36,277 bases of DNA from IMG/VR virus record IMGVR_UViG_3300020043_004003, positions 1 through 36,277 of that record. The stretch is one strand, 5' to 3'. The notes beneath the pieces were generated by a model. That model did not search any database and was not told where the DNA came from. It saw only the letters and a program-made list of their open reading frames with translations. Of the stretch, positions 9,506 through 17,124 are shown piece after piece (position 1 is the first letter of the stretch; each line of letters begins with the position of its first letter). Made by a program: the position numbers and the translations under genes. The stretch is from a virus (taxonomy: Duplodnaviria > Caudoviricetes).

Positions 9506-11080
9506 TTATATCGGGCATGTAACGCTGTTAAATGGAAATACACGCTTACCCTTACCGCCGAAAACAAAAGTCTTTCTTTTGTCCTGGGTAATAGCCCACT
9601 TACGCAGTTGCATAAATTTATCGTCCTTAGAATCTTCTTTCTTAATAACCCTGCCTTTAGGAAAATCCAACAACTGACATAAGCCCTGAACAGCGTCGGC
9701 CAAGTCGTCATGCGGCGTCGAGCGTATACGAGTCATCTGCAATTCCAACTCACCCATACCAGCTTTATGGAACAGCGAATGCTGTGCATACCTCGGCTGA
9801 CATCGAACCATTATCCGCTGTATCTTATCCGCATCCCAAACTAAGTCTTTAAACGAAATCCAATGGTTGTTCTTCTTCATCCACTCACGGAATAAGTGCT
9901 TATACACCTTCTCCAGCTTTGCCTTCTCTAACCCAACTGGTACATAATATCCCGTCAGCGCACGTAGACGTTTCTCCATCTCGACGACGGTAGCCATAAA
10001 CACATCGGGCTTAACACCCTTCTTGTGAAAATAATCATCGACGAGTAAATACGACTCAGGCGTTAAAAAACCGGGGACAATAGCTGTAGAATCACTCTCT
10101 CTTTTTTCTTCCCATGCTAGGTCGCATGATATGGCAGCTCGACAGGTTCTCAACTCGCCCCGGCATATAATAGAATCGTTCTCGTCGTACAATACATAAT
10201 CGTTCTCAATTATTTTCCATCGTCTAAAGTCAGAAGCCTTAATATCGTTCATATCGCCGTGCGACGGGTCGTTTTGGTATTCTTTCGCAAATACCGCTGG
10301 CTTCTTAGCCCGTAAATCTTCCAACTCCGCTACGCTCATCTTCTCAGGCCACAAACTCTTGCCACTATCGCCTAACGCCTTATACAATAACTTCCTGTAT
10401 TCAGGATATTCGCCCTTAGACACCAACAAAGCCATTAACGCATCGTCATGTAATATCGTCCCGATGACAATAACATCCATCGTCTCTTTATCACCAGCAG
10501 GTATCAATGCTTCATCAAACGTCGCACGTAAATTCTTGCGTCTAATAGGGTTTCTTACCAGCTCGTCATCTTCCAAGTCGTCAACTAATATCAAATCAGG
10601 TCGCCACGCACCAAACTTTTCTCCTCTAACGCCACCTAACTGCTCCGCACCCTTACACAATACCCTTGTCTCAAACCCGTCTTTATGGCGGAATATACTA
10701 TCGCCCTCACTATCCTTCGTTATTCTTACACCTAGCTCCTTTATCTTCGGATTCTCACGGTATTCTTTCTTAATGTTCTCCAAAGACTGCGTTGCTTTGT
10801 CATAAGTGCTCTGCGCTATAACAATAAAATGCTTCCGTTTAAAAAATATCGCATGGCTCGGAGTTAATAACGTCAAAATCGTGCTTTTAGCGAACCCACG
10901 AGGAGCCGCTACCGCCAAAAATCTGTTATACTTCGCCTCTTTTACGATCTTTAAATGAAAAGGAGCACTCCCCACTCGGAAATGCTCCTTCAAATAGTAC
11001 ATACCCCACAATAAAGAATTGTTCTCAAACTCTTTTACTATGGACTCGGTGATACTGACATCACCCGACGGATTTAACAC
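9506..11080 (-). CDS. terL: Terminase large subunit
   Basis: Walker A APRGFAKST, Walker B LILVDDLE, VIGT coupling motif, EYQNDP, nuclease CDLA...D and HDDLADA. Confidence 0.92.
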   Translation of the reverse strand: MLNPSGDVSITESIVKEFENNSLLWGMYYLKEHFRVGSAPFHLKIVKEAKYNRFLAVAAPRGFAKSTILTLLTPSHAIFFKRKHFIVIAQSTYDKATQSLENIKKEYRENPKIKELGVRITKDSEGDSIFRHKDGFETRVLCKGAEQLGGVRGEKFGAWRPDLILVDDLEDDELVRNPIRRKNLRATFDEALIPAGDKETMDVIVIGTILHDDALMALLVSKGEYPEYRKLLYKALGDSGKSLWPEKMSVAELEDLRAKKPAVFAKEYQNDPSHGDMNDIKASDFRRWKIIENDYVLYDENDSIICRGELRTCRAAISCDLAWEEKRESDSTAIVPGFLTPESYLLVDDYFHKKGVKPDVFMATVVEMEKRLRALTGYYVPVGLEKAKLEKVYKHLFREWMKKNNHWISFKDLVWDADKIQRIMVRCQPRYAQHSLFHKAGMGELELQMTRIRSTPHDDLADAVQGLCQLLDFPKGRVIKKEDSKDDKFMQLRKWAITQDKRKTFVFGGKGKRVFPFNSVTCPI

Positions 11081-11111: not shown

Positions 11112-11690
11112 TCACTGTGCATCACCTCCAGCCGAACTTTCACCGCCACCAACCATCCCAACAGCATTTAAATACTCACTTAAATTATTCAACCTGTTCT
11201 CCCACCCATCTGCATACTGACCATACTTTTCAGGGTCTTTAGCTATCAGTTTTTGCATCAATTCCCGACGACGACCAATATACTCGCCTACCAACGCATC
11301 CTCACCGTTCTTAGCCACATAGTCCATAATAGCACCATGTGTCTGATTCCCGTATATCCCGTCAGCCTTTACGCCAACTACCCTCTGCAAATCCTTTATC
11401 GCCTGTGTCGTCCCAGAATTATACCCGTAATCAAAAGCCGCTACCCCTACCTTCGTCGGTAAATTTCCCAAACCAACGCTGTCATAATACATATCCCTTG
11501 CTATCGTATACGCCGTATCACTCCCCATGTCCTTAACGCTCAACTTCTCCTTGCTACCCGTCTTACGCAAGTAATTATCCAGCGTCGTCTGCGTTACCCC
11601 GTAGTTTGTAGGCCCTGCATGGTCTACCACATAACCACCCTCAACATCCGGTCTAAACGTGAACGCCGACGCTATATCGAAATTATCCAC
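11112..11690 (-). CDS. Glycoside hydrolase family 108 lysozyme with peptidoglycan-binding domain
   Basis: EGGYV..HAGPTNYGVT catalytic motif, FDYGYNSG, LQRVVGVKADGIYG, GWENRL. Confidence 0.85.
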   Translation of the reverse strand: MDNFDIASAFTFRPDVEGGYVVDHAGPTNYGVTQTTLDNYLRKTGSKEKLSVKDMGSDTAYTIARDMYYDSVGLGNLPTKVGVAAFDYGYNSGTTQAIKDLQRVVGVKADGIYGNQTHGAIMDYVAKNGEDALVGEYIGRRRELMQKLIAKDPEKYGQYADGWENRLNNLSEYLNAVGMVGGGESSAGGDAQ

Positions 11691-12147
11691 CGACTATCTC
11701 CCCGTCCTGAACCTCGCCCATCTCCAACACCTTATTCATCCCCCGCAACCGCTCCGCCACCAGTAATAAATGCGCCCTGTCCTCCGCCGATAATACTATC
11801 CGGTGATTAACATCCACCCCACCCTCAACCTTCAAATTTATACTCTCCCACCCACGCGCCTTCATGCCTTTATCTAAAAATTTCTCTCGCACAACTAAAT
11901 CAGGAACTTCCGACATAACATAACTGCCATTAACCAACTTATCTACATTCTTAACAGCACTCAACCCCTCATCCAATACCCTAGCAAGTCTCTCATCCGT
12001 CACCCCAGCCCTATCCAATGCCTCTAAACGCCTCTGTATTGAAGCCTCTGCCCTAGATAGTCCTCGACCTACACTACCATCCAAAGATTCAACTGCGTCA
12101 ATCCTAGCGTTATCCAGTGCCTTCGTAGCCATGTCTCTACTTAACAT
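11683..12147 (-). CDS. Putative terminase small subunit
   Basis: First gene of late operon; helical; PDLVVREKFLD motif; size and position. Confidence 0.55.
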   Translation of the reverse strand: MLSRDMATKALDNARIDAVESLDGSVGRGLSRAEASIQRRLEALDRAGVTDERLARVLDEGLSAVKNVDKLVNGSYVMSEVPDLVVREKFLDKGMKARGWESINLKVEGGVDVNHRIVLSAEDRAHLLLVAERLRGMNKVLEMGEVQDGEIVGG

Positions 12148-12248
12148 GTTTTCTTGTTGTGGTCAAGTTTAAAATTTTTTGGCGCGTGCGAGTGATGGCT
12201 AGCACAAGCACCCCCACCCCCTACCCCCGAATTCGTCCGACAATCCCA

Positions 12249-12264
12249 CGTTCCACGTGAAACA
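12249..12264. promoter_or_regulatory. parS-like ParB/Spo0J binding site
   Basis: CGTTCCACGTGAAACA, one mismatch to the canonical TGTTNCACGTGAAACA. Confidence 0.75.
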
Positions 12265-12285
12265 ACATATTATGTCAAGTACGCA

Positions 12286-12313
12286 AGCTAACATAATATC
12301 AATTATAGGTAGT
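12286..12313 (-). promoter_or_regulatory. dif-like XerC/XerD recombination site
   Basis: Minus strand ACTACCTATAA-TTGATA-TTATGTTAGCT, 11-6-11 layout; compare B. subtilis ACTTCCTAGAA-TATATA-TTATGTAAACT and E. coli GGTGCGCATAA-TGTATA-TTATGTTAAAT. Confidence 0.7.
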
Positions 12314-12334
12314 AATATAGCTTAAATGTATGTG

Positions 12335-12347
12335 TATCAATAGGTTA
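12335..12347 (+). promoter_or_regulatory. IHF consensus site
   Basis: TATCAATAGGTTA matches WATCAANNNNTTR exactly; the motif is short and degenerate. Confidence 0.4.
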
Positions 12348-12551
12348 TGTGCATTATCCATATCCTACCTGCTACCACTGCCCTATGCCATGCTCTATCT
12401 AACACCGGAAAACGCAACTACGTGGCATCCTGACGCAAATAACAGGCATCTAAGAATCGTGTCTAATGGCATCTAGCAATGCCAGGTGATATGCCCTGGG
12501 CGCAACCAAAAGCAAGCGATAAAATACCCCAGAAATTACCAATAAACTAAC

Positions 12552-12578
12552 TTAGCACTCTACCACCAAGACTGCTAG
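12552..12578. promoter_or_regulatory. CIRCE-like HrcA operator
   Basis: TTAGCACTC-N9-GACTGCTAG against TTAGCACTC-N9-GAGTGCTAA: 16/18 with exact spacing. Confidence 0.7.
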
Positions 12579-12609
12579 TTATACTTGCATTGTTTTACAT
12601 TCTTTGACA

Positions 12610-12840
12610 TACAGCCTATATTCCATGTTTACAGCGCATTATTAGAGAACGACTGCCTATATATATATAGAGTACAGCTTATACAGCTTATATTCCTATA
12701 TTTTAAATAAAGAAAACATAAAATAGAGAATAGAGAATATAGAGAGTATAGGAAAAAAGTATGGAATATGAGCTGTAAACGCTGTCCAAGCACAAAATTA
12801 CTTAAAAAATGAGCTGTAAAGAAAAAAAAATGAGCTGTAA
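12610..12840. repeat. Iteron-like direct and inverted repeats around an AT-rich core; putative replication origin
   Basis: ATGAGCTGTAA at 12768, 12809, 12830; inverted TACAGC(C/G/T) copies at 12610, 12630, 12673, 12682. Confidence 0.6.
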
Positions 12841-13564: not shown

Positions 13565-13720
13565 ATGGAACTACTAACCGACTACATCGGCACAAACTTT
13601 GAAAAGGGAACAAGATTGCAGTTAGAAAAAATCGCTTATGAGAAAAAAGTCAATCTCTCGACGGTGGTGAGGTGGGCGGTGGATGAGTATCTGAAAAAAG
13701 AATTGGAAAAAATTAGTTGA
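13565..13720 (+). CDS. Ribbon-helix-helix (CopG/Arc-like) regulator, 51 aa
   Basis: Hand translation MELLTDYIGTNFEKGTRLQLEKIAYEKKVNLSTVVRWAVDEYLKKELEKIS; RHH pattern. Confidence 0.65.
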   Translation: MELLTDYIGTNFEKGTRLQLEKIAYEKKVNLSTVVRWAVDEYLKKELEKIS

Positions 13721-13744
13721 CATTGGCATGGGTTTAATTATAAT
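13717..13744 (+). promoter_or_regulatory. Consensus sigma70 promoter for the replication operon
   Basis: TTGACA-16-TATAAT. Confidence 0.75.
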
Positions 13745-13796
13745 AAAATCTATGTTCAAAACGGCAAGACTTAAAAACCTGAACAAATACTATGAG

Positions 13797-13837
13797 ACCT
13801 CAACGAGACCTTAATATCTCGTTGAGGTTTTTCTTTT
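13797..13837 (+). terminator. Intrinsic terminator in the replication operon leader
   Basis: 12-bp perfect stem ACCTCAACGAGA/TCTCGTTGAGGT followed by TTTTCTTTT. Confidence 0.75.
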
Positions 13838-13905
13838 GCCACTAGGGGTTGTCTTGCCGACTTCAAGCCATGTAAATGGTTGCCCTTAGTGGCTTTTTTA
13901 TTTTT
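13838..13905 (+). ncRNA. Structured leader element: 11-bp closing stem, inner GNRA hairpin, U-tract
   Basis: GCCACTAGGGG/CCCTTAGTGGC; AGCCAT-GTAA-ATGGTT; followed by TTTTTTATTTTT. Confidence 0.55.
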
Positions 13906-13915
13906 GGAGTTTAAA

Positions 13916-14404
13916 ATGAGAGTATATGCAAGCATAAAATGTCCTACTAAAAATTGTAATAATAATTCTAGAAAGAGAAAACCGTTTTGCTGTAAATGTT
14001 GGGCTAAGATAGACAAAGGATTAGATCCAACTAAAAAAAATAAATGTTCTGGAGCAAGAAATGTAAATTGGAAAGGAGGAATTTTTCAATACCCCAATCA
14101 TGCGTTAATGAAAAGAAATAGATTGTTAAAATTAAAAGAATGTAATTATATTTGCCAGCAATGTTTTAAAAACAGGGCGACAGAGATCCACCACAAAGAT
14201 TTTTCAAAAGACAATCATTCCTTGGATAATTTAATCCCAATGTGTCGCCCCTGCCACGGATTAAACAGATCAAATAGTTTAATTAAAATTTATGGCAGAA
14301 GCATGAAGCAAATACAGCAAGAATTAAACATTCCGTTAAGCGCTGTTTATACGCTTCATTATAGAAGTAAATTAAAAAAAATATTAAACCTCACCCAAAA
14401 ATGA
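13916..14404 (+). CDS. HNH endonuclease
   Basis: CQQC...IHHKD...NHSLDNLIPMCRPCH; NWKGG motif; start moved to ATG 13916 after GGAG. Confidence 0.85.
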   Translation: MRVYASIKCPTKNCNNNSRKRKPFCCKCWAKIDKGLDPTKKNKCSGARNVNWKGGIFQYPNHALMKRNRLLKLKECNYICQQCFKNRATEIHHKDFSKDNHSLDNLIPMCRPCHGLNRSNSLIKIYGRSMKQIQQELNIPLSAVYTLHYRSKLKKILNLTQK

Positions 14405-14428
14405 GGCCATTCATTTCATCGAGGGAAA

Positions 14429-15769
14429 ATGTCAGAAATCGACGTTATGTTCTCAATCGCACAAGGCATTGCCGCCGGAAAAACCGGACACGAATTTGTC
14501 TATTGCATGGATGAGGACAAATACTATATATATGCGGATGAATACTGGAAGCGGATAAACGAAATTGAATTGATGAGCATAGCCTTGAAGCATTTCACCG
14601 GAGAAAATAACACGGTAAACATAACACGCTATACGGCGTCACGAAGAGCGCAAATTCCAGAAAATTTGAGATTTTTGATATATCAAAAACTACAGGACTT
14701 TAATAAAAACGGATACCTTAATTTTCCAGAAGGCGAAATGGATATGGAAACGGGATACGTCCATAACCACGACAAGAACAACTATTCAACTTTGCGAATG
14801 CCTTATAACTTTAGGATGGGAGCTGATTGCCAGTTGTGGTTAAAGTCGTTAGACGAAATATTTGAAAAGGAAAAAGACCCGAAGAAATGCGCTGAAAAGA
14901 TTGCCATATTACAGGAATTTTTCGGGTACTGCCTGACTAGAGACACGGAGCAAAGAAAAGCACTATTGTTAATTGGGGAATCTAACTGCGGGAAATCGAC
15001 AATATTATGGACGCTCCGCAATATGCTTGGGGATCATAATTGCTCATCGGTATCAATGAAGAATATCAGCAATGCACAATTCACGAGCAGTCTTATGAAT
15101 AAGGCGGTCAATATCGACACGGATGTGTCCACAGATGCACGGGAGTATGAAGAATCTTTCAAAAAGATTGCAGGTGGCGAACCTGTTAATTGCAATAGTA
15201 AGTACCTGGAGCCATTTGATTTTTTCCCGTGGGCAAAAATTATCATGGCAAGTAATGGTTTCCCCCGCTGTTCCGACCATAGCGACGCATTCTTTAACAG
15301 GCTTATAATTATCCCTTGTGAGCGCATATTTGAAGAAAATGAACAAAATAAAAAGTTGCCGAAGTTATTAAAGGAAGAATTGCCGGGGATATTTAACTGG
15401 GCATGGGAAGGGCTGAAGCGATTAAATGCAAGGGGTCAATTTGATATAAAAGATTTCGTCGCACAGGCTCGGCAAGACTTGAGGGATGAGAGCAATCCGA
15501 TTGATGTTTTTTTTAGGGAAACTATAGACGCAACTAAAATATTTGAAGATTATATTGGCAAACAAGAATTATATCAAAAATATCTCGATTGGTGTCGGAA
15601 CAATGGGAATTCCCCGATGTCCAATATCAAATTTGGGAAAGCAGTATTTCAGAAATATAACAAGACAACAGAAAAAGATTCAAAGTTAGATAACGGGATG
15701 AGAGTCTGGCGATGTATGAAACCAAAAGAAAATAGACCACCACAGGATGACATCCAATGGCAGGAATAG
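14429..15769 (+). CDS. D5/P4-type SF3 helicase (primase C-terminal family) with no obvious primase domain
   Basis: LQEFFGYCL, Walker A GESNCGKST, FKKIAGGE, IIMASN, FFNRLIIIP, C-terminal LYQKYLDWC winged helix. Confidence 0.88.
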   Translation: MSEIDVMFSIAQGIAAGKTGHEFVYCMDEDKYYIYADEYWKRINEIELMSIALKHFTGENNTVNITRYTASRRAQIPENLRFLIYQKLQDFNKNGYLNFPEGEMDMETGYVHNHDKNNYSTLRMPYNFRMGADCQLWLKSLDEIFEKEKDPKKCAEKIAILQEFFGYCLTRDTEQRKALLLIGESNCGKSTILWTLRNMLGDHNCSSVSMKNISNAQFTSSLMNKAVNIDTDVSTDAREYEESFKKIAGGEPVNCNSKYLEPFDFFPWAKIIMASNGFPRCSDHSDAFFNRLIIIPCERIFEENEQNKKLPKLLKEELPGIFNWAWEGLKRLNARGQFDIKDFVAQARQDLRDESNPIDVFFRETIDATKIFEDYIGKQELYQKYLDWCRNNGNSPMSNIKFGKAVFQKYNKTTEKDSKLDNGMRVWRCMKPKENRPPQDDIQWQE

Positions 15770-15945
15770 TCGAATACATGAATGTTAAAGGCTTTGACGT
15801 TCTCGACATGAGCCGAATAATCAAATGCCTATCGCTAGGCGGTGAGATCACTAATATATTTGACTGTACTTGGATGGAGTTGAATGCGGATTATATCGCC
15901 CGCCTAGAATATCTTACAAAAACCCAAACAGGAGAAGTGAAATGA
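15757..15945 (+). CDS. Small hypothetical protein
   Basis: Overlaps both neighbours in operon fashion. Confidence 0.55.
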   Translation: MAGIVEYMNVKGFDVLDMSRIIKCLSLGGEITNIFDCTWMELNADYIARLEYLTKTQTGEVK

Positions 15946-16526
15946 CAGAACAAACAACGCAGTTGGAGGTATTAAAGGAGCCTATGGCATTAGGTGAAGT
16001 TTTTGCGGCGTCAGGGATGTTCCCAGACATAAAGACACAGGCGCAAGCCGTGGTTAAGATTATGGCAGGGAAAGAGCTTGGCCTAAGTGCTTTTCAATCA
16101 GTGTCAGGCATCTACATGGTCAACGGACGTCTTGCCCTACAAGCTGGGGTTATGTCGTCGCTGGTAAAGAGAAGCCGCAAATATGATTATACGGTTGACG
16201 AGTTGACTGCCGAAATTTGCAAGTTGACCTTTTATGACATTAGCAAAGATGAACACAGGCCACTAGGAACAAGCGAGTTTACCTTTAAAGACGCCGCTAA
16301 AGCGGGGCTGGTCAATAAAGACAACTGGAAGTCATACCCTAAAAACATGCTTTTCGCTAGAGCGTTGTCTAACGGCGCAAGATGGTATTGCCCCGATGTT
16401 ATCTGCGGTTGGTATACCGAGGAAGAAGTGCAGGACATCGAACAGCCACCAATCGACGCCAACAAGACAGTAATCGACTTAACAGCAGAGGGGGTTCGTA
16501 GTGAGCCGAGTTCATCGAGCGTATAA
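15942..16526 (+). CDS. RecT/Red-beta-like single-strand annealing protein
   Basis: IMAGKELGL...IYMVNGR...AAKAGL..KDNWKSYPKNMLFARA...CPDV; start at ATG 15942 after AGGAG. Confidence 0.75.
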   Translation: MTEQTTQLEVLKEPMALGEVFAASGMFPDIKTQAQAVVKIMAGKELGLSAFQSVSGIYMVNGRLALQAGVMSSLVKRSRKYDYTVDELTAEICKLTFYDISKDEHRPLGTSEFTFKDAAKAGLVNKDNWKSYPKNMLFARALSNGARWYCPDVICGWYTEEEVQDIEQPPIDANKTVIDLTAEGVRSEPSSSSV

Positions 16527-17124
16527 AAATTCTTTGCCATCGGTGACAACTATCTTGGGCGTGTTACGTAAGCCTGGGCTAGAGCATTGGTTTAAAATGA
16601 ACACTTTAAAATTCATTACCAACGCAACAAACAAGGGCAAAACCATAGGAACACAGACACACGAGGCCATAGAACACTTCATAACCACAGGGAAAGCAAG
16701 GGTAGAATCTGAATACCCCACGGAAGTTATTAATGCGCTTAGTTCCTTCATGCTGTTTAGAAAAGAACATCCAGAATGCGATCTAAAGCTGTCAGAGACT
16801 GCGCTAGTACATTCTGTACATAATTATAACGGAACTATTGACGCCCCTAGCCCGCCGGATTTGTACGACTGGAAAAGCGGGGAAGCTAAAGAGTTAGACA
16901 AGCCGAAAGTATATCCAGAGTGGCTTTACCAGTGTTCAGCCTACACACATCTTTGGAATGATAATTACCCCGACACGCCAATAAGACGAGCGCATATAGT
17001 GGCTCTAGCCAAAGATAAAGTAGCGTATAACCTCTACACGATGGAAGAAGAAGAAATCAACAGTTGTTTTAACGAAGTGTTCTTATCTTGTTTAAGAATA
17101 CACAACTACCAAAGGAGAAAGTAA
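16501..17124 (+). CDS. PD-(D/E)XK exonuclease
   Basis: PSVTTIL, GTQTHEAIE, E...GTID...DWKS, QCSAY. Confidence 0.8.
   Translation: MSRVHRAYKNSLPSVTTILGVLRKPGLEHWFKMNTLKFITNATNKGKTIGTQTHEAIEHFITTGKARVESEYPTEVINALSSFMLFRKEHPECDLKLSETALVHSVHNYNGTIDAPSPPDLYDWKSGEAKELDKPKVYPEWLYQCSAYTHLWNDNYPDTPIRRAHIVALAKDKVAYNLYTMEEEEINSCFNEVFLSCLRIHNYQRRK

Follow-up and report, generated by a model that had tools for sequence, protein, structure and literature searches.

The stretch of DNA analysed here (the window) is the entire 36,277-nt record of an uncultured tailed phage, estimated by CheckV to be 84% complete, and the sequencing runs that contain its sequence are mainly wastewater metagenomes. Late genes run leftward from 12147 (a terS-like ORF, a variable lysozyme gene, terL, a gene in the portal position and the major capsid gene), and early genes run rightward from 13009 (HNH, D5 helicase, RecT, exonuclease and methylase). 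The two divergent sets are separated by an 861-nt intergenic gap that holds a parS site, a dif site, a CIRCE element and a block of iterons. The genes that matter for what follows are:

9506–11080, minus strand, terminase large subunit (phrog_38, E = 1e-63)
11112–11690, minus strand, GH108 lysozyme (Pfam), a variable insert between the terS-like gene and terL
11683–12147, minus strand, terminase-small-subunit-like gene, a lead only, from its position and an Atlas feature match of 0.92 to a Terminase_2 cluster
14429–15769, plus strand, D5/P4-type SF3 helicase (D5_N, DUF5906 and Pox_D5 in Pfam; phrog_864)
15870–17124, plus strand, RecT-like annealase and exonuclease (domain and PHROG matches)

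The terS-like ORF itself has no Pfam or PHROG match. The lysozyme gene is a presence/absence module, being absent from a sister phage (L001, with a TerL about 100% identical) and skipped by contigs in all four of the runs analysed (joint 11129–11696); the HNH gene that precedes the helicase (13690–14413) is likewise skipped in several strains, which fits a mobile endonuclease. As the preliminary description of this DNA had stated, a tyrosine integrase, a resolvase, ParA and ParB are all absent from the 84% of the genome that is sequenced. Neither a CI-type repressor nor a chaperone gene was recognised among the 60 ORFs of the window, and no structured RNA matched Rfam. The missing part of about 7 kb is probably structural, because in a complete relative that part falls within a one-directional late operon. 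Cultured relatives are distant (best TerL identity about 30%, helicase about 28%), and one complete family member sits in a named bacterial bin, where it may be misbinned. Five copies of the E. coli Chi octamer lie at 621, 3930, 4569, 5705 and 8226; the minus strand, which is the coding one, carries every copy, a bias that may just mirror Ala-Gly codons.

The intergenic gap and its immediate surroundings contain the following sites:

12211–12228, minus strand, G-rich tract (C-rich on the plus strand), anchored in 45 of 76 family loci
12249–12264, no strand assigned, host-type parS in a single copy, 1 mismatch; 0 of 2000 shuffles
12270–12280, plus strand, lone XerD-type arm, identical to the F. 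alni XerD arm in the comparison table of Kono et al.; 1 of 2000 shuffles exact, 32 of 2000 loose
12286–12313, minus strand, dif-like Xer site with 11-6-11 geometry; 4 of 2000 shuffles
12313–12303, minus strand, XerC arm of dif, ACTACCTATAA, identical to the predicted B. cereus arm in the same table
12302–12297, minus strand, dif spacer, TTGATA
12296–12286, minus strand, XerD arm of dif, TTATGTTAGCT
12335–12347, plus strand, weak IHF-like match; 198 of 2000 shuffles, with one core mismatch in L001
12424–12479, plus strand, conserved block with three GGCATC repeats starting at 12424, 12445 and 12468 (spacing 21 and 23 nt)
12552–12578, no strand assigned, CIRCE (HrcA operator match), 16/18 with a 9-nt spacer; 0 of 2000 shuffles
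12610–12840, no strand assigned, candidate origin, opposed AGCTGTA-type iterons around an AT-rich core (12697–12762)
12610, 12630, 12673 and 12682, minus-strand iterons
12771, 12812 and 12833, plus-strand iterons

All five motifs named in the preliminary description (for ParB, XerD, XerC/D, IHF and HrcA) are present where it placed them, and the iteron-like repeats that it reported after the HrcA site are real, with four opposed copies on the left and three on the right. Its judgement that chance is an unlikely source of the cluster was assessed with 2000 dinucleotide shuffles of the 861-nt intergenic region, using the consensus words for parS, CIRCE and IHF. That judgement stands for parS, dif and CIRCE (0, 4 and 0 shuffles) but falls for IHF alone (198 shuffles); the lone XerD arm recurred exactly in 1 shuffle and in relaxed form in 32. 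Genome-wide, the IHF word occurs at chance frequency (3 found, 3.5 expected), as does the loose XerD arm (81 found, 81 expected). Two features had been overlooked: the G/C tract at 12211–12228, which marks the upstream side of terL across the family and may serve as a packaging signal, and the three phased GGCATC repeats at 12424–12473. A triple of this kind appeared in 6 of 2000 shuffles, and the block, on the XerC side of dif, may supply accessory or operator sites. The ORF at 13565–13720 (51 aa, no Pfam match) presumably resembles ribbon-helix-helix regulators, and is a candidate binder of these repeats.

The dif site has the top dif score in the window, matching 18/22 positions when compared with three published seeds from Kono et al. 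(PMC3025954); its arms were compared with 30 of the 33 rows of supplement 2 of that work. The lone XerD arm lies tail-to-tail with the XerD arm of dif, and parS, 21 bp from dif, fills the place where a XerC arm for this lone arm would stand. This parS is the sole site in the genome with at most one mismatch. Between the tract and parS, at 12234–12243, lies a XerC-arm-like word; 7 of 40 family loci have a similar word close to the tract, against 0.76 in shuffles, with a pattern chosen post hoc. It may be that parS was inserted into an older forward dif. The site is 300 bp from the candidate origin, unlike a chromosomal dif, which lies opposite the origin, and KOPS do not converge on it: 2 of 6 GGGNAGGG octamers point toward dif and the KOPS-like octamer at 12219, inside the G/C tract, points away, although this octamer may not be the one used by the host. 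Genome termini at dif were considered and rejected, as contig ends show no pile-up at a fixed distance from it. Raised contig depth over 12242–12643 is uninterpretable, because short overlapping contigs are summed there.

CIRCE/HrcA operators control groESL and dnaK in bacteria and lie over or just behind a vegetative promoter, and the geometry of the window's copy agrees with the consensus, TTAGCACTC-N9-GAGTGCTAA. A -10-like TATAAC on the minus strand (12583–12578) abuts CIRCE and faces the packaging genes; it has no -35 element, and no full sigma-70 promoter was called at CIRCE. To the right, the candidate origin comprises a 66-nt core of 82% AT between the four left and three right iteron copies. 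The iteron block has a hairpin z score of -3.6, and the cumulative skew reaches its minimum at 12696, which could be explained by the switch of coding strand alone. In the helicase, the ATPase and D5_N domains are clear and the winged-helix matches are weak (Pox_D5, E = 4.6e-4, just under the cut-off); this protein is the likely initiator for the iteron origin.

We then compared the locus with L001 and with the strains in four sequencing runs. L001 keeps parS (16/16), the lone XerD arm (11/11), dif (24/28, 86%), the GGCATC block (48/56, 86%) and CIRCE (25/27, 93%), with intervening spacers at only 35–53%. Identity at parS and the lone arm is little informative, because the surrounding block is near-identical anyway (98–100%). 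The true islands of conservation against L001 are therefore dif, the GGCATC repeats and CIRCE only. Within 12190–12640, none of the 40 variants listed (of 68) in the four runs falls in parS, the lone arm or 12286–12311. Many strains carry T12337C, which disrupts the IHF core. An abundant contig in two runs joins 12263 to 12552 through a different intervening sequence, so that parS and CIRCE persist while the dif–IHF–GGCATC segment is swapped in abundant strains. The origin block is also strain-variable and is replaced elsewhere (joints 12604/5–12846). In two runs of one study, contigs depart from the window at 12289, a position within the dif XerD arm; this divergence could mark another phage, a recombinant or a host junction.

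To place the sites in a wider family, we assembled relatives of the terminase from three collections, around an alignment of 59 TerL sequences; 119 loci at or above 39% identity gave 88, of which 76 had at least 150 nt upstream, 45 were tract-anchored and 40 had enough sequence beyond the tract. Among these 40 anchored loci, the window and L001 included, dif was found in 9 (0.02 in shuffles), IHF in 7 (1.1), parS in 3 and CIRCE in 2. Because the first dif pattern had been tuned after seeing matches, the test was repeated with the published seeds: all 12 matches of at least 18/22 in the 88 loci (679 kb), two of them (L117 and L169) doubtful by eye, lie within 2.5 kb upstream of terL, a zone that makes up 16% of the family-locus bases. 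About a quarter of the family loci thus have a dif near terL. In most relatives that carry one, the site lies inside the packaging operon, and in several it comes directly after the terS-like gene. Spacers drift among close relatives, with 11 in 24 distinct rows, 4 in 31 and 4 in 6.

The sites are nonetheless optional in this family. On a quick TerL tree of 52 rows, with 11 dif labels assigned by eye (L117 scored as lacking it, L169 omitted and L148 added), the dif label changes 9 times against 10.2 in shuffled labels, at least 5 changes being forced by strong branches; this scatter indicates that dif was repeatedly gained or lost. Ten near-complete viral relatives yielded one poor dif match with 3 mismatches, no parS and no CIRCE, with a tyrosine integrase in one and no resolvase or ParA in any. 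A circular, complete 45.4-kb member (G007:C1) carries dif, and parS, CIRCE, an integrase, a resolvase and ParA were not found on its contig; between its tract and terL, at about 300–700 (L436), are six TGTCACGAC repeats. Dif is thus dispensable in the terminase family, CIRCE is confined within it to the lineage of the window, and parS is rare. A search of 185,579 bacterial genomes returned 4 family matches, none shown to be resident or integrated, and none of the 17 family viral records is classed as a provirus. Conservation of the cluster, which the preliminary description had proposed to check in related phages, is thus kept in the sister phage and strains and stops at the species-level group. 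Its five-site panel does not survive as a unit, given parS in 3 and CIRCE in 2 of 40 family loci, a broken IHF core and a swapped dif segment; parS, dif and CIRCE look like independently gained, optional add-ons and not a single system.

Beyond the family, scans for a C- or G-run followed by dif returned 55 and 78 loci, respectively, in 32 clusters overall, and by our tally 19 of these have terL or the portal gene beyond the XerC arm. Because the tract requirement biases such scans toward terminases, we also ran a dif-only scan (59 loci forming 39 clusters, with annotation for 68 of 71 long ORFs). Here 23 of 39 clusters have terL no more than 3 kb away, compared with a baseline of about 15% for a random 6-kb window, itself a rough estimate, and dif is upstream of terL in 21 of 39. 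Of these 21, 17 have the XerC arm toward terL and 4, like the window, the XerD arm. Across unrelated phages the XerD arm is fixed, the XerC arm looser and the spacer free. Extra XerD arms occur close to dif in 7 of 39 phage clusters and in 11 of 264 distant windows. The general signal is therefore dif beside terL, recurring in many unrelated uncultured phages.

Other elements of the window's arrangement travel less well. The G/C tract was rejected as a dif-specific partner, its mirror-image control giving 78 loci against 55 and the tract being present in 7 of 39 unbiased clusters. Among the 32 tract-selected clusters, 8 have an exact IHF word after the XerD arm and none has one on the XerC side (shuffles 0.17), but in the unbiased set only 1 of 39 has it, and one-mismatch words stand at 7 against 7. 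Helical phasing of IHF was likewise set aside: offsets of +14, +15 and +25 are suggestive, but a large cluster has +19, and the unbiased set has 1 of 39 exact. The first scan for parS with dif found 14 loci, consisting of microviruses, tandem-parS look-alikes and the sister phage; a recurring unit of parS and a XerD arm was rejected, because 48 loci in 21 clusters have no fixed spacing. Microviruses of about 6.2 kb, encoding a replication initiator and a pilot protein (L005, L006, L009, L010, L012, L013 and L015), carry a parS-like word 25 nt before a dif-like site, with spacing as in the window. Among tract-selected dif-bearing records, a weak parS match was found in 1 of 15.

We also asked what kinds of phage carry these sites. 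A tyrosine integrase is missing from 12 of the 14 near-complete tract-selected records, and none of the 30 tract-selected records is a provirus. In the unbiased set 8 of 30 records are proviruses: 2 have an integrase, and the other 6 come from one cluster, in which the member with annotation is a Mu-like transposable phage that bears a single dif 570 nt from the record end. That cluster (L511, with L488, L509, L517, L520, L527 and L528; G067 and G071–G075) consists of Mu-like prophages of 35–47 kb with distant similarity to Pseudoalteromonas phage HS6 and their own transposase; each has one dif-like site, 70–580 nt short of the record end, with a conserved palindrome containing a XerC-like arm ahead of it. 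In the two integrase-bearing proviruses (L490 and L510), dif comes directly after the portal gene. Since Mu-like proviruses with their own transposase carry one, dif sites need not be attP. A tailed IMEX was considered for the proviruses with dif near the end and dropped, as they are Mu-like in the single annotated record.

CIRCE of the window's variant occurs at at least 119 viral loci in 54 clusters (about 170 stretches). Within 38 full-flank clusters, the sister phage included, terL lies no more than 2 kb from CIRCE in 11 (52 of 66 ORFs annotated). Viral copies (L314–L432) stand beside terminases, primase-helicases, integrases or anti-repressors, and no chaperonin was matched near them among 52 ORFs tested.

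We read the gap as the control hub of an integrase-free phage that opportunistically borrows host proteins during infection, and give this a probability of roughly 0.45. The reading builds on what the sequences show: the motifs and how sister strains conserve them, dif turning up repeatedly beside terL, and no recombinase or partition gene of the phage's own in the sequenced 84%. The RecT-like annealase and exonuclease would generate circles and multimers of the phage genome, and the D5 helicase would act at the iterons to begin theta replication. Host XerC and XerD would then recombine two copies of the phage's own dif, converting multimers to monomers, perhaps steered toward such self-by-self recombination by the IHF-like site and the GGCATC block on the XerC side. 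Host ParB may load at parS, as it does on phi29 (PMC2731898), and host HrcA may damp a leftward packaging-gene promoter until chaperones are stressed. Self-recombination fits the drift of spacers among close relatives. Several observations run against this reading: the family can do without dif, as the near-complete relatives and the scatter on the TerL tree indicate; in most phages the XerC arm faces terL, whereas in the window the XerD arm does; the IHF link is unstable (8 of 32 against 1 of 39 clusters); no full promoter was called at CIRCE; and the dif spacers of gokushoviruses vary too, yet gokushoviruses integrate (PMC7062461). The function shared across phages is perhaps not resolution, since a Mu-like phage has no obvious circular dimer.

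Three other readings are retained because gokushoviruses integrate despite variable spacers and the Mu-like case strains resolution. XerCD, ParB, IHF and HrcA, bound next to the packaging signal with no strand exchange, might shape or shield the DNA for the terminase, or they might be drawn off the host chromosome as copies of the phage genome build up, a decoy role that the preliminary description had also raised. The firm association of dif with terL in different terminase families, the proximity of viral CIRCE to terL (11 of 38 clusters), the placement of dif right after the terS-like gene in several relatives, the extra lone XerD arms near dif and the dif of Mu-like phages all point this way, but one copy of each site makes a poor decoy, pure binding has no need of the full 11-6-11 geometry that is kept, and contig ends do not cluster at any set distance from dif; we consider this architectural or decoy role unlikely. 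Rather unlikely, too, is the host-run mini-chromosome that the preliminary description had put forward as one option. Here the phage would last over many generations at low copy number, with host ParABS/SMC segregating its circle through parS, recombination at dif keeping it monomeric and HrcA holding off the late operon until proteins are under stress. The part of that claim that stands comprises host-type sites conserved in the sister phage and an origin-like block, so that all the needed cis sites lie with it within 600 bp; the phage's own integrase, ParA, ParB and a recognisable CI repressor are absent from the sequenced part, and strains in which the segment between parS and CIRCE is swapped still keep both of these sites. 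The part that does not stand is the conserved unit, and the single parS also counts against it. Moreover, KOPS octamers mostly point away from dif, bacterial genomes hold next to no members of the family (4 matches in 185,579) and gave no sign of lysogeny or carriage, near-complete relatives lack parS, CIRCE or a convincing dif, and none of the features described would silence the early replication genes. Its fullest form we regard as distinctly unlikely: a mini-chromosome segregated by host ParB/SMC, kept monomeric by host XerCD with the help of an accessory cassette built by the phage, and with HrcA as a lysis switch that frees the packaging operon under chaperone overload. It would be the most complete case of a widespread, undescribed habit among uncultured phages of placing host chromosome signals next to the terminase.

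Integration in the manner of IMEX elements, with dif as attP and host XerCD inserting the genome at the chromosomal dif, is in our estimate improbable. An intact dif with no integrase in the sequenced part, the contigs of two runs that depart at 12289 within the XerD arm, and a patchy distribution and variable spacer, as in the integrating gokushoviruses (PMC7062461), would suit it. However, no integrated family member was found in the 185,579 bacterial genomes, proviruses number 0 of 17 family records and 0 of 30 tract-selected dif-bearing records, and of the 8 proviruses in a further 30 records, 6 are Mu-like and 2 have an integrase; the site lies inside the packaging operon in most relatives, and the loose end at 12289 may be another phage's. 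Spacer drift and the dif of Mu-like phages also speak against an attP role. Such insertion, if it occurred, would leave CIRCE and the origin severed from the late genes. That the matches are look-alikes due to chance, relics or operators for proteins of the phage is very improbable as a general account: this explanation holds for IHF alone and accords with the optional nature of the sites in the family, but the shuffle statistics, the islands of conservation and the Xer-typical pattern seen in unrelated phages, where the XerD arm is constant, the XerC arm more relaxed and the spacer unconstrained, speak against it. Taken together, the gap holds a real, species-level-conserved, lineage-specific collection of optional sites, and not a demonstrated mini-chromosome.

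Singly, such sites are already known: parS on phi29, Xer sites on plasmids and IMEX elements, and CIRCE on bacterial chaperone operons. In a literature search that was thin on subscription journals, we found no paper on dif beside the terminase in tailed phages or on CIRCE with a terminase, and host parS on phages for phi29 only. The locus adds three sites and an origin in one place, swapping at the level of strains, and counts for dif beside terL: in more than half of the viral clusters with this type of dif, the site stands immediately upstream of terL, mostly in integrase-free phages, and transposable phages carry it too. If host XerCD acts during the replication or packaging of tailed phages, it would be an unrecognised host factor for many environmental phages, and both ‘no integrase’ and ‘has a dif site’ would be poor guides to lifestyle. 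Sites for three host proteins lie here within 330 bp.

The CIRCE of the window resembles those of groESL and dnaK in its 9-9-9 inverted repeat and 16/18 match, but faces packaging genes, with no chaperone gene recognised. P1 has loxP/Cre near pac and lambda has IHF at cos, a recombination site and a bending-protein site close to where packaging starts, and thus a possible parallel to the dif and IHF-like matches of the window; P1 encodes its own recombinase, whereas this phage has none in the sequenced 84%. Phage-plasmids of the P1 and N15 type have their own partition genes, resolvase and repressor, which were not found here in that same 84%.

In SaPIs (PMC9371898), the origin has at least two opposed iterons on each side of an AT-rich core and lies directly downstream of rep. 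The window likewise has opposed short iterons flanking an AT-rich core and encodes an SF3 helicase, but its origin is 1.6 kb upstream of the helicase gene, no primase domain was recognised, and the C-terminal winged helix of SaPI Rep has here only a weak match. Phage phi29 (PMC2731898) bears five host-type parS sites used for spore entrapment; like it, the window phage has a host-type consensus parS without ParA or ParB, but a single one, close to dif. Integrated forms are on record for CTXphi, TLCphi and gokushoviruses (PMC5357621, PMC7062461). With these and the IMEX elements the phage shares a dif-like site, the lack of an integrase, a patchy distribution and a variable spacer; those elements are filamentous or ssDNA phages, satellites or islands, whereas this is a tailed phage of the 43-kb class with an intact XerD arm, and no integrated form was found in the records searched. 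Further parallels are the plasmid sites cer (ColE1) and psi (pSC101), where about 200 bp of accessory sequence on the XerC side acts with PepA plus ArgR or ArcA (PMC11724359, PMC5357621). As in cer, psi and the FtsK-dependent xrs, a 28-bp 11-6-11 core sits on an extrachromosomal replicon, and as in cer and psi there is conserved sequence on the XerC side, within about 170 bp, that here is swapped together with dif. Unlike all three, the site is on a tailed phage beside the terminase, with a XerD arm and parS abutting its XerD side (PMC11724359, PMC5357621).
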